Origin: a virus
Lineage: Duplodnaviria; Heunggongvirae; Uroviricota; Caudoviricetes
Length of the DNA: 25,906 bases
Virus record (IMG/VR): IMGVR_UViG_2740892258_000020
Reading direction: 5' to 3' (one strand)
Shown: positions 1-23,338 of the stretch, piece after piece
Layout: each line of letters starts with the position of its first letter
Numbering within the stretch: the first letter of the stretch is position 1
The notes under the pieces: model-generated
Told to the model about the DNA's origin: nothing
The model's input: only the letters and a program-made list of their open reading frames with translations
Databases searched by the model: none
Program-made: the position numbers and the translations under genes

Positions 1-774
1 TCAATCTGTCAATGCAACACCCCTTTCAACTGCAAGCCCCCAGGTAAAGCAGTCATGCCCGCGCCCCGCCAGCGCCCCGGATTTGTACGCCTCAAGCGTT
101 ACATCAGCCGGGATGGTGGTTTCGCCGTATTCTTTGCGCAGCAGTTCGATAGATTCAGCGATCAGCGCGTCGGTCAGGTCGCGTGAGCAAAACAGGTATT
201 TCACGCCACCATAAACACGGTGGAAGCCCGTAATGTTGTATTCGTAAATGTCCTCCATTGAGTTAACGCTACCTTCCTCAAACTTGTCTGTAATCGCTTC
301 TACAGCCTCTTTGGTTGGGCCATCCGTCCACGAAACATAGAGCGCGTTATAGTCACGCATACGGACAGAAAACTTCACTCCGGGGAAATGCTTTTTCAGC
401 AGAATACGGATGTTTTTAGCGGCTAGCTTGGTGGTGTTGCTTTCGGTGGCCGTGGTCAGCAATCCGGCGTTTTCCGGGTCAGCGCTGGCGCGTTCGTTCG
501 CCAGCTGGCGGGCATCTTCTTTCGCCTGGTGTCTCGCTTCGCGCTGGTCGGTCACACTCTGCACAACCTGACGGCGGGCGCGGAGTTCATCGAGTGGAAG
601 GGTCTTATCGATCACCTGGTAAAAGCGCAGGGAAGTTTCCAGCAGCGGGGCGCAGGTTGGGGCATTCAGGCCGAGGATGGTATAGCTGATTTTGCCGTCA
701 GCCAGATTAACCGCGCTTACTACATACTCGTTTTTAAAAGAGGTGAGGCACTGGCCGACAGTTAAAGTAGTCAT
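1..774 (-). CDS. hypothetical protein (257 aa) in GC-rich flank outside the prophage structural module
   Basis: ORF 1..813 on minus strand; start most likely the internal ATG at 774..772, which has AGGAGT 7 nt upstream (the ORF-track start at 813 is a GTG). Stop at 1..3. No domain recognised. Confidence 0.55.
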
Positions 775-857
775 GATGTTACTCCTGATAATCGCCGCTT
801 TGGGCTGTGTCACCGGGCGGCGGTATTGCCTCCCGATGAATTAAGTATCGCTCTTTT

Positions 858-1018
858 TGCCCTCAAAATTATGGGCGTTGGCCTCAACACGATTTTACGT
901 CACTTAAAAAACTCAGGCCGCAGCCGGTAACCTCGCGCATACAGCCGGGCAGTGACGTCATCGTCTGCGCGGAAATGGACGAACAGTGGGGCTATGTCGG
1001 GGCTAAATCGCGCCAGCG
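858..1018 (+). mobile_element. IS1 internal fragment (insB-coding portion), about 160 bp, lacking both inverted repeats
   Basis: Near-identical to the IS1 sequence as I recall it (ATTATGGGCGTTGGCCTCAACACGATTTTACGTCACTTAAAAAACTCAGGCCGCAG...GGCTAAATCGCGCCAGCG); one frame reads [23 protein letters not shown] as in InsB. Similarity stops abruptly on both sides. Confidence 0.7.
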
Positions 1019-1218
1019 AGCGTCTGCCCGTTCCATACCGGCATACAGCGCATCGCCGAGCAGAAATCACTGAGAACATCCCACGCCTTACGCTGTGTGG
1101 TCAGCCAGGCATTACAGGTGATGCGCGGCTCCGTGCCACCAAAGCCATCCGGCACCGACTGGTCGCAATACTGGCCGATGACATAATTCCTGCTTCAAAG
1201 ATTGAGAAGGAGACGAGA

Positions 1219-1617
1219 ATGTACGGAACATGCGAAACGCTATGCCGGGAGCTGGCAGCAAAGTATCCGGGAGACGCGCCGCTGATGCTGGTTATCTGGT
1301 CCCCGGAAGAAATTCAGGCCCTCGCTGACGGAATGGATATTTCCCTGTCCGATCATGAAATCAGGACTGTCCTGGCGCGCCTGGAGGACATCCCGGAAGA
1401 CCAGCGGACTGAATCCGGTATTTCTTCCGGTGCGGCGATGGAGATCATCAATAACGTGAGAGAAAACCGCCAGGTGACCGTCCCTGCTGAACTGCTGGCG
1501 TCCCTGATTCAGACCGCCGAACAGGCACTGTGGAAACGTGAGTGGGCCGCCCGTGTGTACCACGGTGTATCTGTAATTTTAAATAACTCTCCCTGGATAA
1601 AATCTTCAGAAGCATAA
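1219..1617 (+). CDS. hypothetical protein (132 aa); C-terminus probably altered by the rearrangement junction near 1567
   Basis: ATG at 1219 preceded by GAAGGAGACGAGA (GGAG-type RBS). The ORF-track start at 952 lies inside the IS1 fragment in a different frame from insB. GC-rich coding sequence switches to AT-rich after ~1567. Confidence 0.5.
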   Translation: MYGTCETLCRELAAKYPGDAPLMLVIWSPEEIQALADGMDISLSDHEIRTVLARLEDIPEDQRTESGISSGAAMEIINNVRENRQVTVPAELLASLIQTAEQALWKREWAARVYHGVSVILNNSPWIKSSEA

Positions 1618-2408
1618 AAAAGAGGCTGGCCCGGTATTCTCTCAAATAAAAAACGAGCATTTTTAAATCGACTGACATCCGGAAGAGTTGATACTTTAAA
1701 AGTAAGCCCTAATCCGTCAATTTTATAACCTGGAGATGAGGCTTCAAGGCACGCGCTTATTGCAGTGGAATCGTCATTTATACCATCACCAACAGCTCCA
1801 AAATCTTTGGGGCTAATAGCATCACGCATTTTATCCTGGAACGTTCGGTACACAGCCCCAGAACCATACTGAATAAACCAACCAAAACCACCAACAACCC
1901 CGGAGATTGCAGCATCGACATAATTACGCATTGAGCGATTATTTACAGCGTCCTGCTCAAATGATGGATCTGCAAGGTTAGAAATTTTGTTTTGCTTTGC
2001 ATCGTAATATTTTGCAAGCAAAGATGGTTTCATCAATGCACGTCTGAACCACCCAAAACATTGCTGGATCAGCATCGTCAGGTAGTCAAAGGCATCTTCA
2101 TGCACTTCGGGGAAAAATTTTCCCTGATTGCGAAGGTCTGTCTCCTGCACTACATCAAGCACACGATCTATCGTAATTCGCCATCCAGTAGCAAGCGGAG
2201 ACGGAAGAACCACAGAACCGCCACTATAAGTGCCCGCCCCAGTTACCGTATAACCGGTATCCAGAACCAATTCTGTTACGTTTCCGTTCAGGTCAGACAC
2301 CTGAACAACCAGGTCTGATTTTCTGAAAACTCGAAAAGTATACGGAAACGATGTCGTAACGCCGTTACCGGTGTATTCGTTGTGGTCAACTTCGGTTGAG
2401 ACCGTCAT
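1509..2408 (-). pseudogene. truncated tail fiber/tailspike: N-terminal virion-attachment domain plus the start of a pectate-lyase-like beta-helix (depolymerase) domain; genuine sequence ends near residue 280 (~1567)
   Basis: N-terminus MTVSTEVDHNEYTGNGVTTSFPYTF...DLVVQV is the recurring podovirus tailspike N-terminal pattern; PKDFGAVGDGINDDSTAI is a typical start of a right-handed beta-helix depolymerase domain. Only ~90 residues of that domain are present before the ORF runs into unrelated GC-rich sequence. GGAG RBS 8 nt upstream of the ATG. Confidence 0.6.
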
Positions 2409-2511: not shown

Positions 2512-2527
2512 ATTACCTTTCAGGTAA
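2512..2527. promoter_or_regulatory. operator-like palindrome ATTACC-TTTCA-GGTAA, site 1, in the tailspike / 85-aa gene divergent region
   Basis: Inverted repeat TTACC-N5-GGTAA; one of five copies in the window, all intergenic. Confidence 0.55.
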
Positions 2528-2885: not shown

Positions 2886-3392
2886 TTAACAGTCGTAAAA
2901 TTCCGGGTCCCACAAACTTGCATCGCGCGGCATGGATTCTAAATTTTTCAGCCGCAAAATTCTGTCACACTCGACAAGAAGTTTTTGTTTTTGTTCGTCA
3001 ATTTCTACTTTTTTGTGTGCTGGCTCATCCCAGTAATCCAGAAGAAACGCATGTCGCTCAGACGTTACAAGATAAATCACATACACATCACTGGTTGGTA
3101 TTTTTTTATGCTTGTTGGTGGTCTTGTCTTTCTTCCCGGATGCCCAGTTTTTCCAGCATTGTTCCGTACCGCTCTCACCAAACTTGTCAGTATAGTTTCC
3201 GATGTTTACGTGAACGTGGCGTATGTGATATTCCAGCATCTCTTTCGGTGGATCCCGAAACAGAGTGTCCTTTCCGAAATCCTTATGATGACCGTAGCGC
3301 CAGTGATCTATGAACGCGTTTTTGATAGGTATTAGCTCAGGGTCCTTCCCAAAAATTCCAGGGTGAACCAACCCCTGGAATTTATTCAGCAT
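2886..3392 (-). CDS. YafO-family toxin-like protein (168 aa), probable mRNA-interferase type toxin
   Basis: Motifs resembling E. coli YafO as I recall it: PGIFGKD (YafO PDIFGRD), HVHVNIGNYTDKF (YafO IHLANENNPF), VYVIYLVTSERHAFLLDYWDEPAHKK (YafO HLVYCQGAFDEQAWLLIAILKPEPHK), plus a Lys-rich insertion. Start at ATG 3392..3390 with AGGAG 10 nt upstream; it overlaps the stop of the upstream gene by 11 nt. The ORF-track start at 3497 would give an implausible Arg/Ser/Cys-rich N-terminus. Confidence 0.5.
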   Translation of the reverse strand: MLNKFQGLVHPGIFGKDPELIPIKNAFIDHWRYGHHKDFGKDTLFRDPPKEMLEYHIRHVHVNIGNYTDKFGESGTEQCWKNWASGKKDKTTNKHKKIPTSDVYVIYLVTSERHAFLLDYWDEPAHKKVEIDEQKQKLLVECDRILRLKNLESMPRDASLWDPEFYDC

Positions 3393-3801
3393 CGTCGTAG
3401 AGCTCCTGAGCCATATCTTCGGCAGTGCGTGCAAACATCCTGCGCGAGATTGCATGAGATTTCTCGACGGACATCTTTGGGACCTCATGCATAACATTTT
3501 TGGGAGTTGTGTAATAGCCTATTACAATTTTCACACCTGACTTATGATTAATATCAGCATAATATACTTCTTGTTCAGACGTTTCACGACGAACATAATC
3601 TGCCAGTTTTCCACATTTAAATTCCCCTCCCTGATGTTTTAAAATCTCCTCAACTGCACTATTTTCAGTGAAATACCGAATAAGAAATTTCTGTCCAGAC
3701 TCTTCAGCATGAGGTATAACAGTATTATTGGAAGCCCGAACAATGGCCTTACTCAATATTTCATGGTCTTTATTTTTTTCTGATTTCCTCAAATGCTGCA
3801 T
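3382..3801 (-). CDS. unknown 139-aa protein translationally coupled to the toxin-like gene; candidate antitoxin or sensor partner
   Basis: ATG at 3801 with GAGAG upstream (ORF-track start at 3837 is TTG). Its stop lies inside the first codons of the downstream gene. Does not resemble YafN/Phd-type or RelB/RHH antitoxins that I can recognise. AT-rich. Confidence 0.6.
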   Translation of the reverse strand: MQHLRKSEKNKDHEILSKAIVRASNNTVIPHAEESGQKFLIRYFTENSAVEEILKHQGGEFKCGKLADYVRRETSEQEVYYADINHKSGVKIVIGYYTTPKNVMHEVPKMSVEKSHAISRRMFARTAEDMAQELYDDAE

Positions 3802-3933
3802 TACTGTAGCTCTCTTCGTGTTCACGGGCACCCCCAACTACCTCTAGGGTAAACATTCTATCGAAAGTATACGCATACTGGCAAAAAAATAGGCAGGTAT
3901 TTTCTGAAATGGGATCAATCAAACCACATAGGG

Positions 3934-3977
3934 TTGAAATAACGTGAGTTATGCATTTATTATTACCTTTGCGGTAA
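3934..3977 (+). promoter_or_regulatory. sigma70-like promoter (TTGAAA-17/18-TATTAT) overlapped at the -10/+1 region by operator palindrome site 2 (ATTACC-TTTGC-GGTAA, 3962..3977)
   Basis: Good -35 and -10 hexamers with correct spacing; palindrome begins inside the -10. Points toward the Bro-N gene. Confidence 0.5.
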
Positions 3978-4069
3978 ATTTACATCGCACTCCTCTTGTG
4001 CCATAGTAATCGGGCACTGGAAAAATCCAGTGCCGGGATTGGCGTCCCGGATTACTAAAAGGCGCATTC

Positions 4070-4090
4070 ACCGCGCAAGCGGTTTTTTTA
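4070..4090 (+). terminator. intrinsic terminator-like hairpin (CCGC-GCAA-GCGG with GNRA loop, then 7 T) inside the 5-prime leader of the Bro-N gene
   Basis: ACCGCGCAAGCGGTTTTTTTAT about 100 nt downstream of the promoter and about 155 nt upstream of the Bro-N ATG; preceded by two further stem-loops (4011..4036 and 4034..4050). Confidence 0.4.
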
Positions 4091-4246
4091 TGCGTATAGC
4101 ACGGCCACATTCGTATTATGGTGGGCTGTGTGGGGGCACCGAAAGGTGCGCCGGGTCCTTTTAGCCGGTTACGCCAACCCTGCACAGTTCACCACCAACC
4201 GATTGGCGTCGGTAGTGGTGATTAACCAGACTAAAAGGTAACCACT

Positions 4247-4942
4247 ATGACAGCTACAAAAAGCACGTCCATTTTTTCTTTCGAATCCCAAGCCGATATA
4301 CGGGTAATCGTCATTAATGGTGAGCCATGGTTTATCGCTTCAGATGTTTGTCGGGCTATAGGCATAGCAAATCATCGAGATGCTGTTCGAAAACTTGATG
4401 ATGATGAGAAGGGCGTCGCTTCAACCGACACCCCTGGCGGTGAGCAAGAATCGATCATCATCTCCGAGTCAGGCCTCTACACACTGATCCTCCGCTGCCG
4501 CGACGCAGTGACACCAGGCACTATCCCCTACCGCTTTCGTAAATGGGTTACAGGTGAGGTTCTTCCTCAGATCCGCCGCACCGGAAGTTACATTAAAAAC
4601 TCGCTCCCGCAGGAAGAACGCATAAAGATGGTTGCCGACCAGGTAGCCAACGCCACAGCATCAGCAGTGATGCAGGCAATGAAGATAGAGAACAAAACCT
4701 ACAGTGCCCCACTGAAGCCCGGCTACCGCAGCCTGATTCATTCGCCGTCTGGTGTTCTCGGCCTGACGGAGAACTCACTGCTGATGAATCTGCTGAACCA
4801 GTTACAGGAAGACGGGCACGACGTATCGGGCGCGGCGGCGGAGCTGACCACCATGTTCTGCTACATCGTCGGTGTGAGCAAGTGCCTGCGTGATATCCAG
4901 ACGCACGCGGAGTACATCAACGACAAGGCTGGGTTCTTCTGA
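4247..4942 (+). CDS. Bro-N domain phage antirepressor-like protein (231 aa) with a C-terminal domain shared with the 85-aa protein
   Basis: N-terminus FSFESQADIRVIVINGEPWFIASDVCRAIGIANHRDAVRKLDDDEK...ESGLYTLILRCRDAVTPGTIPYRFRKWVTGEVLPQIRRTG is the canonical Bro-N (phage antirepressor N-terminal) signature. Confidence 0.8.
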   Translation: MTATKSTSIFSFESQADIRVIVINGEPWFIASDVCRAIGIANHRDAVRKLDDDEKGVASTDTPGGEQESIIISESGLYTLILRCRDAVTPGTIPYRFRKWVTGEVLPQIRRTGSYIKNSLPQEERIKMVADQVANATASAVMQAMKIENKTYSAPLKPGYRSLIHSPSGVLGLTENSLLMNLLNQLQEDGHDVSGAAAELTTMFCYIVGVSKCLRDIQTHAEYINDKAGFF

Positions 4943-4979
4943 CGGGCGGCGGCACATGGATGTGCCTTTAAAATAATCA

Positions 4980-5023
4980 TTGGCGATGTGATGTAGATTC
5001 GCGTAATATTACCTTACGGGTAA
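4980..5023 (+). promoter_or_regulatory. sigma70-like promoter (TTGGCG-18-TAATAT) overlapped by operator palindrome site 3 (ATTACC-TTACG-GGTAA, 5008..5023)
   Basis: Same promoter/operator geometry as at 3934..3977; about 60 nt upstream of the 210-aa gene. Confidence 0.45.
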
Positions 5024-5082
5024 GAAAGCGTTTTTAATCTTCCCTTCAAAACGCGTCCTGTAGCCAAACATGGGAGGACGAA

Positions 5083-5715
5083 ATGAAAACAAATACAACA
5101 AGAAAAGCGATGCCATACATTATCCCAGAAGCAGATTTCGACAGAAAACTGAACATGTCTGAGAAGAACACTAGTCACACCGAAAGCTACTTAGCGAAAG
5201 GTGTGGTTGATTTCGTTCTTCCGGGATTCACAACACCTTATGGTTATCGCCTTGTAAAATCTTGTAATGGCGATCATTACAGAATGATTACTACCAGCGA
5301 TACTCCAGAAACGGTGTATGCGGTTAAGTTAATCTTTCGGGAAGATATCGTCGAAGCTAAAAGAACATGTACGCAGATCATGGTATGGCGTACGCCTAAT
5401 GTTATTCATGACCGTGCTGTTCATGGTTTGCCTCAGATTTTTTTTCAGTTCTTCCTAGAGCAATATGCGATCGTTGTATCTGATGAGCAACAAACAATCG
5501 ATGGGAGAAGATTCTGGGAAAGAATGATTTCTTGGGCTATAAACACCCCGGGATATAATGTATACGTTTCAGATGGCTCTGAAGAAGATAGACCTCTTAG
5601 CTTCATGACATCATGGGATGATTTCTATAGCCAGTGGGCTGATTTCTGTTGGGGCAGTGATAAAGATGTGCATACCCACAGACTACTGGTTATAAGCAAA
5701 GATAAACTGCATTAA
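5083..5715 (+). CDS. hypothetical cargo protein (210 aa), monocistronic
   Basis: ATG with GGGAGGA RBS 5 nt upstream; followed by a strong intrinsic terminator; AT-rich; no recognisable motif. Confidence 0.7.
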   Translation: MKTNTTRKAMPYIIPEADFDRKLNMSEKNTSHTESYLAKGVVDFVLPGFTTPYGYRLVKSCNGDHYRMITTSDTPETVYAVKLIFREDIVEAKRTCTQIMVWRTPNVIHDRAVHGLPQIFFQFFLEQYAIVVSDEQQTIDGRRFWERMISWAINTPGYNVYVSDGSEEDRPLSFMTSWDDFYSQWADFCWGSDKDVHTHRLLVISKDKLH

Positions 5716-5719
5716 TAGA

Positions 5720-5742
5720 AGCCCGCAGCGCGGGCTTTTTTG
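5720..5742 (+). terminator. rho-independent terminator AGCCCGC-AGC-GCGGGCT followed by TTTTTT
   Basis: Perfect 7-bp GC-rich stem and six T immediately after the stop of the 210-aa gene. Confidence 0.75.
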
Positions 5743-5813
5743 TGGACGAAACAAAAGTCAGTGCTACACTCATTGACGCCACATTGAGGTGGCTTATAGA
5801 TGGAAATTTCACA

Positions 5814-5975
5814 ATGAAAAAAGCATTTGCTGCACTGTTCGTTTTGTTGTCTCTGGTAGCTTCAACTCAGGCCTTTGCCGGTCGTTGTCAGCACGACAGC
5901 GATACTGCTGCTGACGGCTCCCGCTGCGGTGGGCGTTCTGCGGATTCCCGCCCGGGTGGCGGTGGCATTCGTTAA
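5814..5975 (+). CDS. possible small secreted peptide (53 aa): Sec-type signal peptide then a Gly/Asp/Arg-rich 31-aa mature region with two Cys
   Basis: MKKAFAALFVLLSLVASTQAFA|GRCQHDSDTAADGSRCGGRSADSRPGGGGIR. Upstream TTGACG-16-TATAGA promoter-like hexamers; weak or no SD. Bracketed by terminators at 5720..5742 and 5981..5998. Confidence 0.35.
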   Translation: MKKAFAALFVLLSLVASTQAFAGRCQHDSDTAADGSRCGGRSADSRPGGGGIR

Positions 5976-5980
5976 AAACA

Positions 5981-5998
5981 AGGCCGCGAAAGCGGCCT
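5981..5998. terminator. bidirectional hairpin AGGCCGC-GAAA-GCGGCCT; T-run on the minus-strand side terminates the 283-aa gene
   Basis: 7-bp stem with GAAA loop; on the minus strand followed by TGTTTTTAAC. Confidence 0.65.
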
Positions 5999-6004
5999 GT
6001 TTGA

Positions 6005-6856
6005 TCACTGTGCAGTTTTCGCTGATCGATTTTCAGCTCTAAATTCAAGAACCGTTTCAATATTTCTTTCCTTCAGCATATCAATAACATTTTTATTCAT
6101 TTGACTATCACTGGTTAATAACTGGTAAACGTTGCTTCTCTCTTTATCAGAGTTTTCTTTAACAGCTGCTTTGCATGCCAAATGCTTATTGAAATTTTCT
6201 ACATCGCTAGTACAGGAATTTACGGCTGCTGATGAAATATCAGACGCTGAAGAAACACCATCATCCAAACGTTTTATAGCATTTTCTATACATGAGTTAA
6301 GGGAATAAACGACAACTGAGCGATACCCTTCAGACGCACACCATTCTAAATTTCTTGAAGGATCGAGTGGTTTTACTTCGCTGGATTGAATTAACTTGTC
6401 AAAAACTGACTTATATTCAATCTGTTTTTTATCTATAGCCCATACTTCAGTAGCTGATTTATAATTCCCCGTATGCCTATTAACATCAAATCCATGTTTT
6501 ATAAGCAAATCTGCCCATGAAAGATTTATTGATTCATTGTTATGAGGCCATTTTCCTGTCAGAACCGCCCCCATAGACCCCATATATCCGCCATATGATG
6601 GTATAGCACCATGGCTCAGTAACTTCTCAGCAACCACAGGGCAATTAATTACATAAGAGGCGTAAAGCCCATTCCATAAAGCCCCTCTATAGTAATCGCC
6701 ACGATTAGGTTCTTTTAAGTCGATAGCCTTTGATAATTGTTCACACGTTTTGCATGCATCAAAGTTATCCTTATTGCATTGCAATGAACTGGCAGCTGTA
6801 GGATTTACAGAGACTATTGAAAGCACTATGCCAAAAAACAAATTTATTTTTTTCAT
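6005..6856 (-). CDS. secreted/periplasmic cargo protein (283 aa) with N-terminal signal peptide, many Cys, and possible ankyrin-like repeat motifs
   Basis: MKKINLFFGIVLSIVSVNPTAASS signal-like N-terminus; motifs PVVAEKLLSHGAIP and ADLLIKHGFDVNRHTG resemble ankyrin repeat consensus (tentative). AT-rich; ATG 1 nt after the stop of the upstream ejection-protein gene. Confidence 0.7.
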   Translation of the reverse strand: MKKINLFFGIVLSIVSVNPTAASSLQCNKDNFDACKTCEQLSKAIDLKEPNRGDYYRGALWNGLYASYVINCPVVAEKLLSHGAIPSYGGYMGSMGAVLTGKWPHNNESINLSWADLLIKHGFDVNRHTGNYKSATEVWAIDKKQIEYKSVFDKLIQSSEVKPLDPSRNLEWCASEGYRSVVVYSLNSCIENAIKRLDDGVSSASDISSAAVNSCTSDVENFNKHLACKAAVKENSDKERSNVYQLLTSDSQMNKNVIDMLKERNIETVLEFRAENRSAKTAQ

Positions 6857-6857
6857 C

Positions 6858-9800
6858 CTATTTCATCTGCTCTTCAACTTTATTTAGTAACGGTGATATT
6901 GCCCACAGGTTCTGAAAAGGTAGCATTTTACGGACCGCGTGGGTTTGCTGGCTGTCAAATTCTCCGTTAAGTACACCATTCGCAACCGTCGCGGCATCAC
7001 CGCCAAGATCAAAGGTAGGACCAAGTAAAGCACCAATAGCATTACGACTCTGAAACCTTGATACCGGAGGCGCACCAAACATCGCGCCAAGACCAAACCT
7101 ACCGCCGCTTATGTTCTCAACGGTATTCAGCGGCTCAGAGAGCCAGCCAAGCATTCCGCCCCGGTCGATCCCCTCTTTCACAAGGTTATTCCAGCTGTAG
7201 TCAATATCGCGACCGCTTAACTTCTGTTTCATCATATAGACCATTGAGCCAAGCGCAATCGTGCCAAGCGCACCAAGATAGAATGCAGCATCGCCCTGCT
7301 GGATACCAGATACCAGCACCCTGTTATGCTGTGCGAAGATAAACGTTTTGAACTGCGTGATCATCTTCCAGCCTTCTTTACTAAAAAACAGCGGTGTATC
7401 ACCTACGCCAGGCGTTACAATCACTGAGTCTACATCTTTCAGCACTGCAGACTGGAAAATCTCTCTAGCGAAACGGTCATCCCACAGATGACTATGCCCG
7501 GTTAACAGCCCGTCCATATCCTCTCCGTGCTTCCCGAATTGCTCCCCGATTCGGCGCAGAACATCTTCATTGATGCCGACCTGTGCCATCTTCCGCATTT
7601 CACTTTTGGAGAGCGTGCCACCAGCAGAAACTTGGCGAGCCGCGTCAAGTATCCTCGACTGCACTATCATCCCGGACCATGATTTAAGTGCGCTGTTCCA
7701 CTGATTCATCAGCGTCCAGTTACCGAATTTCTGCGTCATCCAGTTCAGGCCTCGCTCAGCGGCGCTTCTCCGGCTATATGGGTCAGTAAGATCCGCTATA
7801 GCCTTTGTACGCGTAGACAGGACATAATCAAGCCCAACGGCCATTTCTCGCAAATCCCTGGTTGCAATTTTCACTGAGTCCATATTTTTAAGCATGCTTA
7901 CCATTGGTCCGAGAGATTTTCTCAGGCCATGCTGCATCATCGGTCGCATCAGATCAGTTGCAGCGGAGACAGTCATTCCACCAAGCAAACGGAGGAAGTT
8001 AATATTCCTAGCAACTCGCCCGGCACGAACAAAGAAACTGCGTGGATCTTGAGGTGCACCGTAAGTACCAAGCAGTCGATCACGCATAGCCGTAATATCC
8101 CTAATATCAGCCTCCCGTTGCTTCTCAAGAACTGCACGTCGTTTAGGCGTTTTAGCCTCTTTTATTAGCCGGGTATATTCCTCACTAACCTGACGGATTT
8201 GCTCCCCCATATCTTTACGGCCAAACTGCGCAGTCAGCTCAATTTCTGGTGCCACCTGCCGGAGATAACTTTCCATGATGTAGTTAACATCTGATTCAAG
8301 AAAATCTTCTATACGCTCATCAGGAATAAGCAGCGTTCTGCTTTTAGTGAAACCAGCCCGACCAACGAGTCTCTCTGGGATAATATCGGCTGGTACAAGC
8401 CCGGAAGGTGCACCTATTATTTTATTCACGATCTCGTCAGCAGCGTCCTCTGCTTCCTCTCGGGATAGAGGCTCCATCTGCTTCAGTGCTCGTTCGCGGC
8501 TTGCATTCAGCCTTGTGGTTGAATTTGCCCGTTTTTGCAGTCGGCGAAGCTCAGAACGATATTTCCGTGGATTATCCAGCAACTCCATATGGCGCTGATA
8601 GACAGGAAGCTCACTCTTTGCCTGCGCTATATCATCAAGGCGTGTTTTAAGGTCAGAGCTTTCTTTCATCATTCTTGCCTGAAGTTTTTCTGATGAAGTC
8701 TCGGCCAACTCTTTTTCTATTCTTGTAAGACGCGCCTGTGTGTCAGTCTCCTGAGATATAAGCTTATTTCGTTTATCCAGTTCTTCCATGAGTAGAATTT
8801 TTTTACCAGACCATTTCTCCGCTTCAGCGATTTCACTAGCGAGAGCATCAGCGCGCGGTGCCGATTCCTCTGCAGTTTTTAGCAATGAATTTATCCTTTC
8901 AATTCGCTGACCTGCCTTGTCAGCACCTTTGGCACTAATCCCTTGTATCCAGTTGGCAATTCGCCCTCTGAATTCAGTGCGGTCGGAAAGTATCTTATCG
9001 AACTTATAAATGCGGGGAAGATAACTTTTCGCCGTCACGACATCGATATCCTCAGGAAGGATCCCCAGTTCCTGCATACGGGCTTTTGTGGTCTCGAAAA
9101 TGGGGCGGATTCTGGCAGCTGCTTGTGAAACCTCAGGAATATCACTCTGATCACCACGGCGCATAGCCATGCCAACAGCTTCATTGAAATCAATAAAGTT
9201 CATCCTCTTCACGCCGCGGGCGCTAACAGATTTGCTGTACTGCTGGTAAGCATCACGAGTGGCTTCCATCTGCTTATAAAGCATGGCGTCGTATTGCTTA
9301 ATCTTAGTCTCGACTGCCGTAAACGTAGCCAACCCCTCATCATTTTTGGCGAAGAAATAGTTATTTTCGGCAAGCTGCTGGTTAATCTGACGGGAGACAA
9401 GAGATGGTGATTGCGCCAAGCGGCCAGCAGGAGTGACACTCAACGTTTTGTTAGCAAGTCCAAGTCCAGCGAGCTGTTCCTGATCGAGTGTGGTATTGAA
9501 AACCTGAGCTGCACCAATGCTTTGAGGAGAATCCATACCTCGCAAATGATTACCTACTGAGTTAACCACTGCCTCGCGCGCGCCAGGTCCAGCAAGTAGC
9601 TGTGCACCAGCACCAAGGATCCCACCAACGAGAGCATCAACAACAACGTTCGATACGCTCTCCATCGGTGAGCGAGCTTCCTGAGTGGCCTGTAATGCGG
9701 CCTCTGAAGCAACACTGCCAGCAGCATTCGCCAGGGCAAAACGCCCGGCTGTTTCTGCAATACGACCGCCACGAACGACAGCGCCGAACGGAATAAACAT

Positions 9801-14036: not shown

Positions 14037-16507
14037 CAGAATCCCCCAACAGTAAGGCGAGGAATAACGGCAAGAACAGACAGCGGCAACGGATCAAGCT
14101 GACGGATTTTTACACGTCCGTTTTTGCCCCAGTTACTGTCCAGTTTCACTTCTACTTTTCCGGTAGCATCATCAACAGGATCATCGTAGAACTCGAATTC
14201 ACGCTGTGGATATTCGTACCATTTACCGCCGGGCGTAGTCGCCCAGATGCCGCGACTGGCATTCACAACCAGAGTAACGGAGGGGATCACCTGTTTTTTG
14301 TCCAGCAGCGTTTCCTGTCCGTTAATGTTGATATCCAGTGTTTCGAATTCAGCAGTTATTGGCAGGCCGATGTGCACTACAGCCCCCGGAGATTCCAGCG
14401 TGACGGCACCTCCGGAAACCACTTTCTGTGGTTCCACGTTCGCATCAGAGAGAATGTTTACGGTCTGGCCTTCAAGATGAGACAGGCCTCCAAATGTCCG
14501 GCGCGCCATCTGCCAGTTCGTGGTGGCCACATTCCTGAGGGATGGCGGGACGTTCCTGTTAGCACGAACCACTACAGCGGTATTGCTGGTTACAGAAATA
14601 ATGTCGCAACGTAATTCTTTTGACACTTCATCGCCAGTATCAGGATCAGTTCCGGTATAAGGGAACTGTAGTTGCGCGCCGACATCACTACTGGTGAAGT
14701 ACGCACCACCAGAAACACTGATTGTATATTCCGCACGGTAATCCCATTCACCAGAACCACCAGTGATGGTCATCGTTCTGTCAGACGTATTTCTTCCATC
14801 ATAGCTAAGGCCAGAATCAACAAAGAAAGCATCTTCATCGCTGGTAAATAAACGGCTGGACAGTCGCTCGATGTATCTCACTGTTTGCCCGTTAACGGTT
14901 CGGTTAATGACGAAATACACCGCATCTTCATTGCCTTCGCTGATACTGCATGTGCTTTCATATTTTCCGGTACTGGACTGTGGTGCCCATGCAAAAACCT
15001 GTTGATCACGCAAATAGGTCATCACCAGTAATTTACCGTCATCACGAATGCAGAAGGCGCTGGAGTAAGGGACAATAGAGAAGCACCAGTCAACAATGCT
15101 GTGCTTCTGAAAAAGATGATTGGCAAGGATAGTAAGGTCGTTCCCCTGATAGCCGTCAACATCGAATGAGTAGGCCAGATCACGGACAACACTGCCTTTC
15201 TCCTGGACGAACAGAGCAATATTCGCCACGGCAATTGGTGGGACATTGCTCGAACCATTTGATCCCTGAGAGCTGAATGCAAATGATGATGGAGTTAATA
15301 CTTTGTTCTGGTCGCCGGTGATGACGTACTCACCTCCGGAAGTCAGTGCCACCAGCGAACCGACATCAATCAGGTGGCGGATCTCATTAACCTGACGCCC
15401 GGCATAGGTGTAGATAATTCTGTCGTCATCCTGCGTAGGATTGCTTTTGCCAAAATCCTTATAATCCCCAGTACGGCTGGCCCAGATAGTCTGAGGGAAC
15501 GCTGTCGATGCGGCGAAGTAAAGACGTTGTTGATAATAAACAACCGTGCCAGGATAACCGTTAACACTGTTCCAGGCATATTTAGCCCATTTATAGCTGG
15601 CATTATCCTCGCCAACGACCTGCGAAGGGATATAGGAAATCACCTCAGCAGTTGCAGTAGTGCCATTTACAGCAGTTATACGGGCAATGCCAAAACCACT
15701 GTGCAGATACTCCCACTCAATGCCAGTATCATCATCACCGGATCCGCCCCAGCCATCCCATGATGTGCCTTCTGTATGCGAAGGGCGCAAAGTGCCTGTT
15801 TTGCCTGCTGTAACGGCGCGATAGTAGTTACTGTCTGCACGGCGAATATCGCCAATCGACGTACTCTTACTGGTTTCCCATACCGGCACAGAATCCACTG
15901 CAGGCTGTTCCAGATAGAACAATTTGCCTACCTGCTCCGCGCCAAAAATAGAGGCGCTTGCCGTTAACGTAATTGTCCCGGTGCTGGCGCTGGCATAAAC
16001 CGTCACTGACTCATCAATATTGATATCTTCAAATGGCCCGTTCTTCGTTACCACATCAACCAGTTGCCAGTTGTCATGCGCATAGCGGCGCAGCTCTTTC
16101 GGCGGGTATGCCGGGTGAACCAGCGTAAGCACGTCGGCGCTTTGCGTGAATTTAATTCGGAACAGATCGGCTTCAGTATATGGCGTGGCAATTTCATAAA
16201 TAACATTGCTGCTGTTCAGCACCAACGCACCATCTTTGATAACGCGCATGTACTGGTGTCCGAACTCCAGAGCATAAGTCTGAACCGTCGAGAATTGGAA
16301 CGGGATCAGGCGGCATTTCCGATTTGGGTATTTGGCGGCACCGACAAAACGCGTACCAGGTCGATTCTCAACGCCGCCATACTGCCGCACGATAAAGTTA
16401 TCGCACTTGCGCAATGCTACCTGGTACTTCGCCATGTCAATACGCCCGTACAACGACGGTCCAATCTCACCACCGGCAAAGCTGGGCTGGATCCAACTGA
16501 TAGCCAT
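14036..16507 (-). CDS. tail tubular protein B-like (nozzle) protein (823 aa)
   Basis: Size and position match T7 gp12; N-terminus (PSFAGGEIGPSLYGRIDMAKY...GGVENRPGTRF) loosely resembles the gp12 N-terminus as I recall it. Confidence 0.5.
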   Translation of the reverse strand: MAISWIQPSFAGGEIGPSLYGRIDMAKYQVALRKCDNFIVRQYGGVENRPGTRFVGAAKYPNRKCRLIPFQFSTVQTYALEFGHQYMRVIKDGALVLNSSNVIYEIATPYTEADLFRIKFTQSADVLTLVHPAYPPKELRRYAHDNWQLVDVVTKNGPFEDINIDESVTVYASASTGTITLTASASIFGAEQVGKLFYLEQPAVDSVPVWETSKSTSIGDIRRADSNYYRAVTAGKTGTLRPSHTEGTSWDGWGGSGDDDTGIEWEYLHSGFGIARITAVNGTTATAEVISYIPSQVVGEDNASYKWAKYAWNSVNGYPGTVVYYQQRLYFAASTAFPQTIWASRTGDYKDFGKSNPTQDDDRIIYTYAGRQVNEIRHLIDVGSLVALTSGGEYVITGDQNKVLTPSSFAFSSQGSNGSSNVPPIAVANIALFVQEKGSVVRDLAYSFDVDGYQGNDLTILANHLFQKHSIVDWCFSIVPYSSAFCIRDDGKLLVMTYLRDQQVFAWAPQSSTGKYESTCSISEGNEDAVYFVINRTVNGQTVRYIERLSSRLFTSDEDAFFVDSGLSYDGRNTSDRTMTITGGSGEWDYRAEYTISVSGGAYFTSSDVGAQLQFPYTGTDPDTGDEVSKELRCDIISVTSNTAVVVRANRNVPPSLRNVATTNWQMARRTFGGLSHLEGQTVNILSDANVEPQKVVSGGAVTLESPGAVVHIGLPITAEFETLDININGQETLLDKKQVIPSVTLVVNASRGIWATTPGGKWYEYPQREFEFYDDPVDDATGKVEVKLDSNWGKNGRVKIRQLDPLPLSVLAVIPRLTVGGF

Positions 16508-18320: not shown

Positions 18321-19313
18321 TTACACCACGCGGGCTTCTGTTTCCAGAAGCGCATCAGTTTCACGGATTGGTACACCACGGAATGAAGTCCACCACTCGC
18401 CTTCTGTCTCTTTTACGCTGATCGCCAGAGATGTTTTCTCCAGAGATTGCAGATCAAGAGCCTGGCCTACAGTGCGGTTCATGTAGAACACCGGGCGACC
18501 CATGCCACGATTTGGAATGCGATGCAGTGCTTTAACCATCAACTTCGCAATATTTGCGGCAGAGGAAGGTTCTGAAAGATTGCTGACATCGATGTTTGCA
18601 ATGCGAACAACATAACGCCAGTCACGCAGAGCAAGTCCGTTGTCCCATTTGTAATGGGTACGGTAGCCTTCGTACTTGCCGCCATTAGCATCTTCCAGTG
18701 TCACCTGGCCTTTATCTTCCATCTGAATGCCAGCCTTCTGCCCTTTCGGGAAGATGCCATGCACTGTGTTTTCGCCCCACACCACTAACCAGATTGAGGT
18801 GTTATCTGTACCCGTGCCACCAGCATCAATGATGTTCTGAGCATTACCTGCAGACAGGCTGGAATAGCGGGAGGACAGTCCCATAAACTGCTGAGGGTTA
18901 ACGCTGGAATCACCATAAAACAGCGTCTGCGCCATCTGCTGATTCATCGCTTCAATAAATGCGCGGTCTTCAGACAGGCGGAATTCGGCGGTATTACCGT
19001 TCAGATCAGCCAGTGACTTATCGACTTCAGCATAGGTTTCCAGCATTCCAACGGAATCGGTGACCTGCACTGTGGTTGATTTGCTTGGCTGTACGCCATA
19101 GTTCAGCAAACGCCAGGTGGCTGAAGGTAAACCAGAACGAATGGTGGTTCGGTGTCCGGTAGGAAGGTTCCCTTCGACAAAAGGCATATCCTGAAGGATC
19201 GGGTTAGTTTGACCGAGAAGCTCGATAATCTTATCGACTTTCCCGTTTTTATCGACGCGCTTACCCCAGTCAGCCAGCGTTAGCGCAGTTAAGCCTTTAA
19301 CAGCCATTGTCAT
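18321..19313 (-). CDS. major capsid protein (330 aa)
   Basis: Position immediately after the scaffold-like gene and size typical of HK97-fold capsid proteins; GC and codon usage match the structural operon. Confidence 0.6.
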   Translation of the reverse strand: MTMAVKGLTALTLADWGKRVDKNGKVDKIIELLGQTNPILQDMPFVEGNLPTGHRTTIRSGLPSATWRLLNYGVQPSKSTTVQVTDSVGMLETYAEVDKSLADLNGNTAEFRLSEDRAFIEAMNQQMAQTLFYGDSSVNPQQFMGLSSRYSSLSAGNAQNIIDAGGTGTDNTSIWLVVWGENTVHGIFPKGQKAGIQMEDKGQVTLEDANGGKYEGYRTHYKWDNGLALRDWRYVVRIANIDVSNLSEPSSAANIAKLMVKALHRIPNRGMGRPVFYMNRTVGQALDLQSLEKTSLAISVKETEGEWWTSFRGVPIRETDALLETEARVV

Positions 19314-19321
19314 TTCCTCTC

Positions 19322-20023
19322 TTATTTGCCATAGAGCACTTCGGCCGCACTACGCTGGCCTTCATTACCACCGGTGACCATGCCATCTTCAGACATCGCC
19401 TTTCCGATTTTCACGAACGTTTTGACCAGATCAGGGTGATTACCCAGCCCGGTGGTGTTCAGATATTCTTTGAGTTCAGGTGTCCCGAACTGGTCAAGCG
19501 CACGCTGTGCGGCGCTAAGGTTAGAAATCAACTTGTCGCCACCGATTTCTTTGTCAGCTTTTACATCCGCAGCCCACTGCTCGGTTGTTTTCTGCCAGGC
19601 TTCTGCCTGGCGCTGCTGAACACCTGCCAGAATCTTCGGATAAGCATCAACCAGCTTTTGCGCTTGCTCGTTGGTCAGGTTAAGTTCTCGCGCCACCGGC
19701 TCGAATTCCTTCAACGCTTCTGTATCCAGCTCTACGCCTTCGGCAGCCTGAAACTCGTACTTCTCAGGCGCACCCTCTGGTTTATCGCCGTCCTTTTTTT
19801 CATCCTGCTTATCGTTTTCAGGCTTTTTGTCATCAGCAGGTTTATCGCCATCAGCAACAGGTTGTGGCTTATCACCTTCCTGTTGTGATGGATCACCAAC
19901 TGGAGCAGGGTTATCACCTGCAGGCGCTGACGGTTCTGACGCAGCCGGAGCTGCTCCACCATCGACTGGTTGCTCATTGCAAAGACGGCTATACAGCAAA
20001 CGCTCAAATAAATTCATGATCAC
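19322..20023 (-). CDS. scaffolding protein (233 aa)
   Basis: Highly acidic, Pro/Asp/Lys-rich N-terminal half and predicted-helical C-terminal half; lies between portal and capsid genes; 4-nt overlap with the upstream gene. Confidence 0.6.
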   Translation of the reverse strand: MIMNLFERLLYSRLCNEQPVDGGAAPAASEPSAPAGDNPAPVGDPSQQEGDKPQPVADGDKPADDKKPENDKQDEKKDGDKPEGAPEKYEFQAAEGVELDTEALKEFEPVARELNLTNEQAQKLVDAYPKILAGVQQRQAEAWQKTTEQWAADVKADKEIGGDKLISNLSAAQRALDQFGTPELKEYLNTTGLGNHPDLVKTFVKIGKAMSEDGMVTGGNEGQRSAAEVLYGK

Positions 20024-22281: not shown

Positions 22282-22318
22282 TTGACATTTAACGCGTTAA
22301 TTATTACCTTTCAGGTAA
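22282..22318 (+). promoter_or_regulatory. TTGACA -35-like hexamer followed by operator palindrome site 4 (ATTACC-TTTCA-GGTAA, 22303..22318); possible plus-strand promoter for the tRNA/moron unit
   Basis: Consensus TTGACA at 22282..22287 with the palindrome centred where a -10 would be; the -10 match itself is poor. Confidence 0.4.
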
Positions 22319-22650
22319 CCAAAGGGCTCATTCTGGTTACTAACCTGACTGGCTTGTCGTTAAATTAAACAGGTGGAGTGAGCTTTTATTTTGAGCAGTA
22401 CGGCGTATGGCACATGCGCCGATAGCGGTCTGGATACGTTTAAGGGGCACCCTCCCTTGCTCGGGCAAACGAACCAGGTAGCCGGAATGTGCAAGTCGAG
22501 CGGTTTTATTCCGCGCACGGGGATTCACCATCCCGGCGATTCGGTGTGACGCCTCGGAAGAGACGAGGGTACAACGATGAGAGCATTTATGGAGCCGCGA
22601 CAAAGTGTGGCGCCTTAACAGGCTAAGTGCTCTCAGCGTTGTGGCATTAG

Positions 22651-22727
22651 CTCAGTTGGACAGAGCAACCGCCTTCTAAGCGGTTGGTCGCAGGTTCGAA
22701 TCCTGCATGCCACGCCAGAATCACGCC
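22651..22727 (+). tRNA. tRNA-Arg, anticodon UCU (reads AGA), phage-encoded
   Basis: Full cloverleaf: acceptor GTGGCAT/ATGCCAC, D-arm GCTC-AGTTGGACA-GAGC, anticodon stem ACCGC/GCGGT with loop CTTCTAA, T-arm GCAGG-TTCGAAT-CCTGC, discriminator G and encoded CCA. Similar to but distinct from host argU as I recall it. Confidence 0.9.
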
Positions 22728-22915: not shown

Positions 22916-23338
22916 ATGAAAACAATTGATATGTTGGCTAAGTATCTAAATGAATGGCCATTAAAATATTCTCGTATCGTTCAGGCTGAAGACTGCGTTT
23001 TTTATGGCGTTTTTGCTGGTAATGAAATGCATTACGAAGTAATTCAGAGTGAGGGACTGGCCGGGTTAACGCTTAGCGATGACCATGGAATAGGAGTTAC
23101 TTGCCATGACTGGATTTCAGCGCAGAAAACTGAAATGGAAAAAGGCAATGTGTTTGATATTTCTCGCGCTGTATACGCCAAAGAAAAAAGTGATGATGAT
23201 TACATGCGCGAAAACTTATACAACATGAAGTTACAATGCCTGGCTGAAGTGCTTAGTAAAAGATCTTTACTTGATGTGGTTGGTGCTGAGCAGGACGCCA
23301 AGGCAATCAACGCCGCATTCGATAAAATAACCTTCTAA
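22916..23338 (+). CDS. hypothetical moron protein (140 aa), opposite strand to the flanking terminase and portal genes
   Basis: ATG with AAGGTGAG RBS; AT-rich; followed by terminator at 23361..23385; no domain recognised. Confidence 0.65.
   Translation: MKTIDMLAKYLNEWPLKYSRIVQAEDCVFYGVFAGNEMHYEVIQSEGLAGLTLSDDHGIGVTCHDWISAQKTEMEKGNVFDISRAVYAKEKSDDDYMRENLYNMKLQCLAEVLSKRSLLDVVGAEQDAKAINAAFDKITF

Follow-up and report, generated by a model that had tools for sequence, protein, structure and literature searches.

What does a short gene do for a prophage, or for the bacterium carrying it, when it stands alone behind an apparent repressor operator and ends in a terminator of its own? We address this question for the gene of the 210-amino-acid (aa) protein WP_000856391.1, located at 5083-5715 on the plus strand of a 25,906-nucleotide stretch of viral DNA (IMG/VR record IMGVR_UViG_2740892258_000020; hereafter, the window). 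By nucleotide match the window is identical to the chromosome of avian pathogenic Escherichia coli (APEC) O18 (NZ_CP006830.1), where a prophage of ~39 kb is integrated adjoining guaA; the remainder of this prophage is contained in a 40-kb locus, L015. The prophage combines a minus-strand epsilon15/phiV10-type structural module with an endosialidase tailspike and a cI/cro-type immunity region. The gene under study, referred to below as the cargo gene, lies in an accessory region with the tailspike on one side and the internal-virion-protein genes on the other. We tentatively suggest that it is an autonomous accessory gene for a divergent GNAT-like enzyme that benefits the carrying cell, the substrate being left general.

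The transcription unit is compact. Its ATG start is preceded, 5 nt away, by the ribosome-binding site GGGAGGA (5072-5078), and a GGAGG precedes the start codon in nearly all homologues. This Shine-Dalgarno (SD) sequence is part of a 5' untranslated region (5024..5082, plus strand) that also contains a CGTCC/ACTCC element conserved upstream of GGAGGAC. An SD-sequestering hairpin in this leader found no support, as there were no compensatory pairs, RNAalifold gave no consensus structure and the SD pairing probability was 0.66, compared to 0.65 in shuffled leaders. Behind the gene lies an intrinsic terminator (5717..5742, plus strand) with the stem GAAGCCCGC/GCGGGCUUU, the loop AGC and a T-run; its 10-bp, G+C-rich stem (5717-5739) folds as RNA at -15.3 kcal/mol (z = -2.6), and a simple terminator scan did not call it. 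A hairpin and T-run follow the gene in most other contexts as well, with stem sequences varying by context. Upstream we recognise a putative sigma-70 promoter (4980..5009, plus strand; -35 TTGGCG at 4980-4985, 18-nt spacer, -10 TAATAT at 5004-5009) with 8/12 matches to consensus. We infer its use because the same -35/-10/operator geometry is seen at other copies of the operator described below, and because phage LLS and prophages of Enterobacter/Klebsiella retain the hexamers. An Rfam search of 4900-5800 returned nothing relevant. The G+C content of the cargo open reading frame (ORF) is 40.8%, compared to 48.9% for the window and 53% for the neighbouring antirepressor gene ant. With its terminator, ribosome-binding site, putative promoter, deviant G+C and variable presence among related phages, the unit is a moron.

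The putative promoter is overlapped by a palindrome, TTACC-TTACG-GGTAA (TTACCTTACGGGTAA, 5009-5023, no strand assigned), which covers the last base of the -10 hexamer and the expected transcription start. When the motif TTACC-N5-GGTAA was searched with one mismatch allowed, 7 copies were found in the window (at 2513, 3838, 3963, 5009, 22304, 25450 and 25468) against 0.43 expected, a number not reached in any shuffle, and 12 copies in L015 against 0.63 expected (further prophage copies there at 16292, 16354, 18300, 18637, 18685, 19397, 19459 and 24683). Altogether 15 copies lie within the prophage; outside it, ~15 kb of flanking chromosome holds a single one-mismatch copy. In L015 the copies at 18637 and 18685 form a pair in the intergenic region of the cro-like and cI-like genes, and those at 19397 and 19459 form another directly after the cI-like gene and before the next genes of the leftward module, with the 19459 copy directly behind TTGACA-N17-AATTAT. 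In the window, the copy TTACCTTTGCGGTAA (3963..3977, no strand assigned) follows TTGAAA-N18-TATTAT and stands upstream of isrK, the C4 RNA and ant as part of the same network, whereas the sequence TTACCTTTCAGGTAA occurs twice, at 22304..22318, downstream of a TTGACA hexamer and upstream of a plus-strand unit of tRNA-Arg and a 140-aa ORF, and at 2513..2527, upstream of a small plus-strand ORF (2604-2858); neither has a strand assigned. At the 5009, 3963 and L015 19459 sites alike, -10 hexamer and palindrome share one base, the final T of the former being where the latter starts. Given the copy numbers relative to expectation and the pairs flanking the cI-like gene, the palindrome is not a product of chance, and it is best read as the operator of the cI-like repressor of the prophage. 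The candidate binder, WP_000836290.1, has a Cro/C1-type helix-turn-helix (HTH_3) and no S24 peptidase domain, which fits a repressor inactivated by an antirepressor. A single symmetric operator in ~15 copies thus seems to control not only the immunity region but also the antirepressor module and several accessory units on the plus strand.

Comparison with related prophages reveals a swap slot at this position. Window positions 4900-5800 (901 bases) were compared with 5,426 complete E. coli genomes; 445 of these match part of the query, and 93 of the 445 carry the cargo gene. Among the matches listed, the place is otherwise taken by a YafO-family toxin with a small ORF, by two small ORFs, by DUF2335 or by DUF4760; a YafO-family pair of the type found at 2886-3825 of the window fills the 5024-5718 slot in other E. 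coli prophages (L013). In two aligned prophages with other cargo, homology stops precisely where the palindrome does, at 5023, and restarts at 5719 or 5736, in the terminator or its T-tract; the palindrome is there a perfect 7-1-7 site, TTACCTTAAAGGTAA. Phage phiV10 lacks the whole segment from ~4953 to 5950, cargo gene included. As sister prophages keep the promoter/operator and terminator region and differ in cargo, we regard this as a slot for exchange, and the breakpoints at 5023 and 5719/5736 identify the promoter/operator as a backbone element gating whichever cargo is present. It follows that these signals are partly features of the backbone, held in common with other cargo, which qualifies the description of the unit as self-contained.

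The promoter/operator can also move together with the gene. Lambdoid phage LLS carries the entire promoter-palindrome-gene-terminator unit: an 84%-identical homologue lies after its lysis cassette, preceded by a homologous TTGGCT-N17-TACTAT and by the sole exact palindrome in the 42.9-kb LLS genome. In phiV10-like prophages of Enterobacter and Klebsiella the same place is held by TTGCAT-N17-TAAGAT followed by TTACCTCAAAGGTCA. The operator marks the exact left edge of cargo exchange between phages. An earlier note on this DNA had described a monocistronic, self-contained moron beside the antirepressor, with an operator-overlapped promoter, a strong ribosome-binding site and terminator, and an AT-rich setting. 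All of this is borne out (the promoter at the strength stated above), and its proposed check of conservation and neighbours yielded relatives in several phage types together with the alternative cargo of sister prophages.

The product is a soluble protein of 24.6 kDa in which no membrane segment was found along its 210 aa. Its sole family match, over the full length, is PHROG 1349 (function unknown). The earlier note had called the gene an orphan, which does not hold in the sense of a gene lacking relatives: close homologues form 63 clusters (37-99% identity, 199-237 aa, 210 aa being commonest; all named hosts are Enterobacterales), and an exhaustive profile search, with clustering at 50% identity, gave 917 clusters at E ≤ 1e-3 and 275 at E ≤ 1e-10. 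A second homologue search with the distant alignment added almost nothing. The best matches in a viral-model search were uncharacterised phage proteins of ~190-200 aa, including one of jumbo phage Atu_ph07 (E 1e-10 to 1e-6), and NAT_SF proteins. The composition, described as Trp/Phe-rich, is so only modestly (Trp 2.9%, Phe 5.7%) and not strongly, while the statement that no motif is recognisable stands as regards Pfam and NCBIfam and is refined by the predicted fold.

In structure comparison nearly all neighbours of the predicted structure belong to the GNAT superfamily, among them NatD/Naa40 (4ua3), AAC(2')-Ia (5us1) and HAT1 (1bob), which it resembles in predicted topology. The alpha/beta fold that characterises GNATs (beta1-alpha1-alpha2-beta2-beta3-beta4-alpha3-beta5-alpha4-beta6-beta7) is recognised in the model, and the predicted order of elements (beta2-beta3-beta4 / alpha3 / beta5 / alpha4 / beta6 / beta7) fits it. 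The protein departs from GNAT families in lacking a sequence or profile match to them, in a long beta4-alpha3 loop, in a Trp at what would be, aligned by eye, the place of the catalytic Tyr of many GNATs and in an extra N-terminal region of ~50 residues with an invariant N29. We consider the assignment of a divergent GNAT-like fold moderately secure; such a fold is indicative of either acyl transfer or acyl-CoA binding.

Among 92 relatives (22-49% identity to the query, median ~28%; pairwise identity 25-30%), the conserved positions are N29, Y79, Q98, W102, R103, S/T133, D134, Q137, T138, G141, F144, W145, Y161, W190 and G191, a pattern that suggests an active or ligand-binding site; conservation of all of these up to W145, Q137 aside, is enzyme-like. 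By eye, T138-x-x-G141-x-x-F144-W145, at the start of the helix after beta5, is spaced like GNAT motif B (N-x-x-A-x-x-L-Y), and G115-L-P (residues 115-117; family consensus G-L-A), which stands ahead of alpha3 after the unusually long loop and lacks the R/Q, could be a remnant of motif A.

Some relatives have additional domains, each seen in one cluster: an N-terminal SRA-like domain, below the Pfam threshold (P0135), an MqsA-type zinc ribbon (E = 3e-20) in place of MqsA's DNA-binding domain (P0154), and a C-terminal DUF5397 (P0150). A distant branch consists of tandem paralogues of 221 and ~205 aa, 15 nt apart (L068 851-1516 and 1531-2148; L069 4186-4851 and 4866-5480; hhalign probability 100%), which suggests a hetero-oligomeric form. 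The fusions and the tandem branch, single clusters each, hint at nucleic-acid-related partners or oligomers.

Relatives occur in at least four phage backbones, and in the lambdoid, siphovirus, P1-like and podovirus contexts the ribosome-binding site and terminator travel along. The contexts are phiV10-like podoviruses; lambdoid phage LLS, after the lysis genes; siphovirus-like prophages of Serratia, between the tail chaperone and tape measure genes and beside a P22-type antirepressor and Arc; a lambdoid prophage of Yersinia pestis, after the tail-tip protein gene and beside Arc and a BRO-N antirepressor; and P1-like plasmid prophages of Citrobacter, on the opposite strand, between the baseplate genes and sit. 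Beyond phages, lone relatives stand at genus-specific housekeeping loci in bacterial chromosomes. With one representative genome taken per species, 69 species carry a relative, and clustering of their loci by shared flanking proteins gave groups syntenic across 3 to 17 species each: 17 species of Enterobacter, Leclercia, Lelliottia, Silvania and Huaxiibacter, beside a nitroreductase gene (L118, Leclercia); 7 of Photorhabdus, at a cellobiose-type phosphotransferase operon and hda (L076, L077); 6 of Proteus, at a pyrimidine/pyridoxal-type kinase gene and pagP (L110); 5 of Morganella, at a haemagglutinin-repeat gene and a peptidase C69 gene; 4 of Providencia, at bamC and purC (L120); and two groups in Xenorhabdus (loci examined, L071/L093), one of 4 species at a permease gene and a Gig2-like gene and one of 3 at ppc and metF. 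The copies of Photorhabdus kayaii and P. cinerea are 83% identical, with a ratio of non-synonymous to synonymous substitution (dN/dS) of 0.09 at a dS of 0.92, and the lone Photorhabdus copies have TATAAT-type promoters without the palindrome. Lone syntenic retention at such a ratio implies that the unit was fixed repeatedly in chromosomes and held there by selection without the phage; the loci point to repeated chromosomal fixation of a phage-type moron. The phyletic pattern and the conservation together indicate that the gene is real and selected.

Placed against known systems, the unit combines familiar traits. Classical morons and accessory genes of immI regions include bor and lom of lambda and sieA of P22, the last next to mnt-arc-ant. 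Like these, the cargo unit is self-contained, deviates in G+C, varies among sister phages and lies beside an antirepressor module. Typical morons are expressed in the lysogen, whereas the cargo promoter bears the operator of the repressor. Phage P1 has dispersed C1 operators and a c4-ant immI module, and the APEC O18 prophage is similar in both respects: many single operators of one master repressor are scattered over it, and a C4 antisense RNA precedes ant. However, the symmetric TTACC-N5-GGTAA is unrelated to the asymmetric P1 C1 operator, which was also searched for, and not found, upstream of the homologue at its P1-like locus. The GNAT toxins TacT, AtaT and KacT share the fold class (chains 6gtp, 7ak7 and 5xun are among the structural matches) and, as type II toxins, are also borne on mobile elements. 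Unlike the GNAT/DUF1778 pairs, the cargo gene has no adjacent gene for a ribbon-helix-helix antitoxin and is monocistronic here and in nearly all contexts. A toxin-antitoxin assignment was rejected, as no context examined contains a partner gene; as for the Arc-like genes found close by in Serratia and Yersinia, they are parts of divergent ant modules and not antitoxin partners. The lone, constitutive-looking chromosomal copies argue against toxicity.

We propose the following scenario. The gene is an accessory cassette, or moron, in the cargo slot of a phiV10/epsilon15-like prophage, most likely transcribed from the modest sigma-70 promoter, whose start site is covered by the operator of the cI-like repressor. 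Repressor would keep its expression low in the lysogen, and release would coincide with that of isrK-C4-ant, on induction or before repressor accumulates after infection; the strong ribosome-binding site and the terminator would yield a monocistronic transcript. The enzyme may transfer an acyl or aminoacyl group to a protein, nucleic acid or small-molecule acceptor, and the expressing cell would gain protection or competitive fitness. An operator over the start, with low lysogen expression and release alongside the antirepressor module, suits an early lytic function and argues against a classical exclusion gene expressed in the lysogen. Lone chromosomal copies under purifying selection speak for a benefit to the cell over a purely lytic or anti-defence role, and, taken with the orphan-operator copy of LLS, they indicate that constitutive expression is tolerated and useful, which favours a protective or fitness function over counter-defence.

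Several observations weigh against this scenario. A promoter scan of 4200-6900 reported none, the 8/12 promoter falling under its threshold; its score and the missing call are why we speak of the cargo promoter as putative. At E ≤ 10, Pfam and NCBIfam gave no match except a spurious PF02458 (0.21), sequence and profile searches of the PDB gave chance matches only and no GNAT link, and no paper in our literature searches mentions WP_000856391 or PHROG 1349. The canonical Q/RxxGxG/A motif for binding coenzyme A (CoA) is not evident and, by alignment by eye, Trp145 occupies the position of the usual catalytic Tyr, so that the protein could be a non-catalytic binder. For the APEC O18 prophage itself, repression in the lysogen sits uneasily with a benefit to the cell. 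Two further negatives concern the family more generally: none of the 92 distant members match the GNAT models of Pfam, and the literature on GNAT prophage or defence genes holds nothing on the cargo family. We nevertheless favour an enzyme acting for the carrying cell, its catalytic nature being suggested by the conserved residues and the predicted fold.

If such a benefit exists, it could, as the earlier note had surmised, take the specific form of anti-phage protection (superinfection exclusion, abortive infection or another defence), with the enzyme modifying a component of the incoming phage or a host factor that it needs. The variable slot, which elsewhere holds the YafO-family pair, DUF2335 or DUF4760, the classical moron positions in several phages, the purifying selection on lone chromosomal copies, as expected of a cell-protective gene, and the presence of tRNA-acetylating GNAT toxins among the structural neighbours would all accord with it. 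We nonetheless think it unlikely, if a real possibility: there is no partner gene and no membrane segment, PADLOC-DB v2.0.0 (5,027 defence-system models, 2023 library) gave 0 families at E ≤ 10, the operator on the promoter should keep lysogen expression low, and structural relatives are found in virulent and jumbo phages too. Defence genes normally turn over quickly, and genus-wide fixation at core loci would be unusual for them. The operator covering the transcription start and the structural relatives in virulent phages are, on the other hand, what would be expected of an early lytic enzyme for counter-defence or host takeover, one that acylates and inactivates a host immune or housekeeping protein, for which the anti-CRISPR acetyltransferase AcrVA5 provides a model. 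Location beside the antirepressor module, itself operator-controlled, adds to this, as does the tRNA-Arg, a typical lytic-phase helper, in another operator-gated plus-strand unit. Lone syntenic retention across 3 to 17 species at a dN/dS of 0.09 is, however, not expected of an anti-defence gene, and the copies in LLS and in chromosomes lack the cognate repressor network, so that expression there is probably constitutive and tolerated; such a function is thus improbable in our estimation.

The remaining alternatives concern chemistry. Orphan methyltransferases occur in virulent phages, as morons and as lone chromosomal genes, and the distribution of the cargo family over phages and chromosomes resembles that of orphan DNA-modification genes. 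An orphan nucleic-acid-modifying enzyme, functionally analogous to Mom of phage Mu, might therefore be envisaged, also in view of the family fusions to the SRA-like domain, which would bind modified bases, and to the MqsA-type zinc ribbon. Mom shares the GNAT fold class and uses Gly-tRNA to modify adenine in DNA (PMC13219725); it is encoded by a tightly controlled accessory gene on the margin of the phage's late region (PMC13219725, PMC7261163). In being phage-borne and in fold class, then, the cargo gene is like Mom (PF25680). It differs in having no Com-like partner, and its model shows no counterpart of the HTH-like insertion that Mom requires. A direct relationship to Mom was tried and rejected: hhalign probabilities were 0.1-0.3% for a single sequence and a 28-member Mom profile (conserved residues R111, S124, D149 and R151; 0.3% against the 28-sequence alignment), and PF25680 gave no match. 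The SRA assignment, moreover, is below threshold and confined to one cluster, and we give a Mom-like activity very little credence. A separate candidate, the T4 Mrh-like family (PF24070; Mrh, ModA.3), considered on account of a weak PF24070 match (E = 0.08) of one fused relative, was likewise discarded at hhalign probabilities of 0.2-0.3%. Finally, the divergent CoA-binding region and Trp145 could mean that the protein is a non-catalytic GNAT-like scaffold. Acting through binding, it might for instance inhibit a host or phage protein, serve such a protein as an adaptor, or sense acyl-CoA. The many polar residues conserved at 25-30% identity (N29, Q98, R103, S/T133, D134 and T138) look more like an active site, and this, too, seems highly improbable.

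The surroundings of the cargo unit are themselves rich in accessory genes. The tailspike gene (1-2408, minus strand of the window; L001 1390-4509) is annotated as an endosialidase, a K1 capsule depolymerase, and the phiV10-like prophage therefore appears tuned to the K1 capsule of its APEC O18 host. Next comes a plus-strand 85-aa ORF (2604-2858) that matches only the C-terminal part of antirepressors (PHROG 450); PHROG 450 also matches residues 148-229 of the ant product, and the ORF may be a duplicated or remnant 3' end of ant. The surroundings of its own operator copy, at 2513, resemble those of the copy at 22304. The YafO-family pair comprises, on the minus strand, the toxin gene and an overlapping upstream 147-aa gene (2886-3392 and 3382-3825); it is oriented divergently from isrK-C4-ant and has a one-mismatch operator at 3838. 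On the plus strand, Rfam identifies the isrK RNA gene (4014-4089, 76.7 bits) and the C4 antisense RNA gene (4114-4199, 77.7 bits), the latter directly upstream of ant (4247-4942), which encodes a BRO-N antirepressor; together these constitute a P1/P7-type immI module, antisense RNA plus ant, within a phiV10-like podovirus prophage. After the ant stop codon a terminator-like hairpin (4951..4973, plus strand; GGCACAT-GG-ATGTGCC, then TTTAAAA), weak at -9.0 kcal/mol (z = -3.6, RNA fold), parts ant from the cargo unit. In a sister prophage (L014 649-933), a ribbon-helix-helix gene annotated 'TacA family antitoxin' replaces isrK/C4 upstream of ant and overlaps the ant start; its product is probably an Arc/Mnt-like regulator of ant and not an antitoxin.

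Downstream of the cargo unit, a plus-strand gene (5814-5975) encodes a 53-aa secreted protein with a signal-peptide-like N-terminus and a Gly/Arg-rich tail, which belongs to PHROG 14503 ('membrane associated protein', moron category). It has TTGACG-N16-TATAGA ahead and a bidirectional-looking hairpin (5981-5998) behind, and it is missing from phiV10 together with the cargo slot. The 283-aa ORF that follows on the minus strand (6005-6856; PHROG 6118, function unknown; no Pfam match) has 36.7% G+C, making it the most AT-rich gene of the region. It occupies the distal end of the operon for virion proteins and is perhaps another accessory gene of foreign origin. Further away, the tRNA-Arg gene (22641-22714) and the 140-aa ORF (22916-23338) make up a unit on the plus strand that lies within the packaging and structural operon of the minus strand.

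Nothing about the cargo gene is categorically new: its product represents a divergent branch of an established fold, and the genetic unit is of a familiar kind. A broader claim would be that the large unnamed GNAT-like family represents a new single-gene protective or modifying function, common to phages and Enterobacterales chromosomes and plugged as a complete unit into repressor-gated slots; acylation of a nucleic acid, a translation component or an anti-bacterial or anti-phage small molecule would be one example of such an activity. We consider this claim doubtful, and its probability low. Its function can be tested directly, since the gene is short, its product soluble and apparently non-toxic, and one phage that has it, LLS, plates on E. 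coli K-12. If the fold and the autonomy of the unit hold, it would offer an entry point to a large unannotated protein family, one that is common in enterobacterial prophages, including those of avian and human pathogenic E. coli and of Yersinia pestis, and that has become fixed in the chromosomes of Proteus, Morganella, Providencia, Photorhabdus, Xenorhabdus and the Enterobacter clade.

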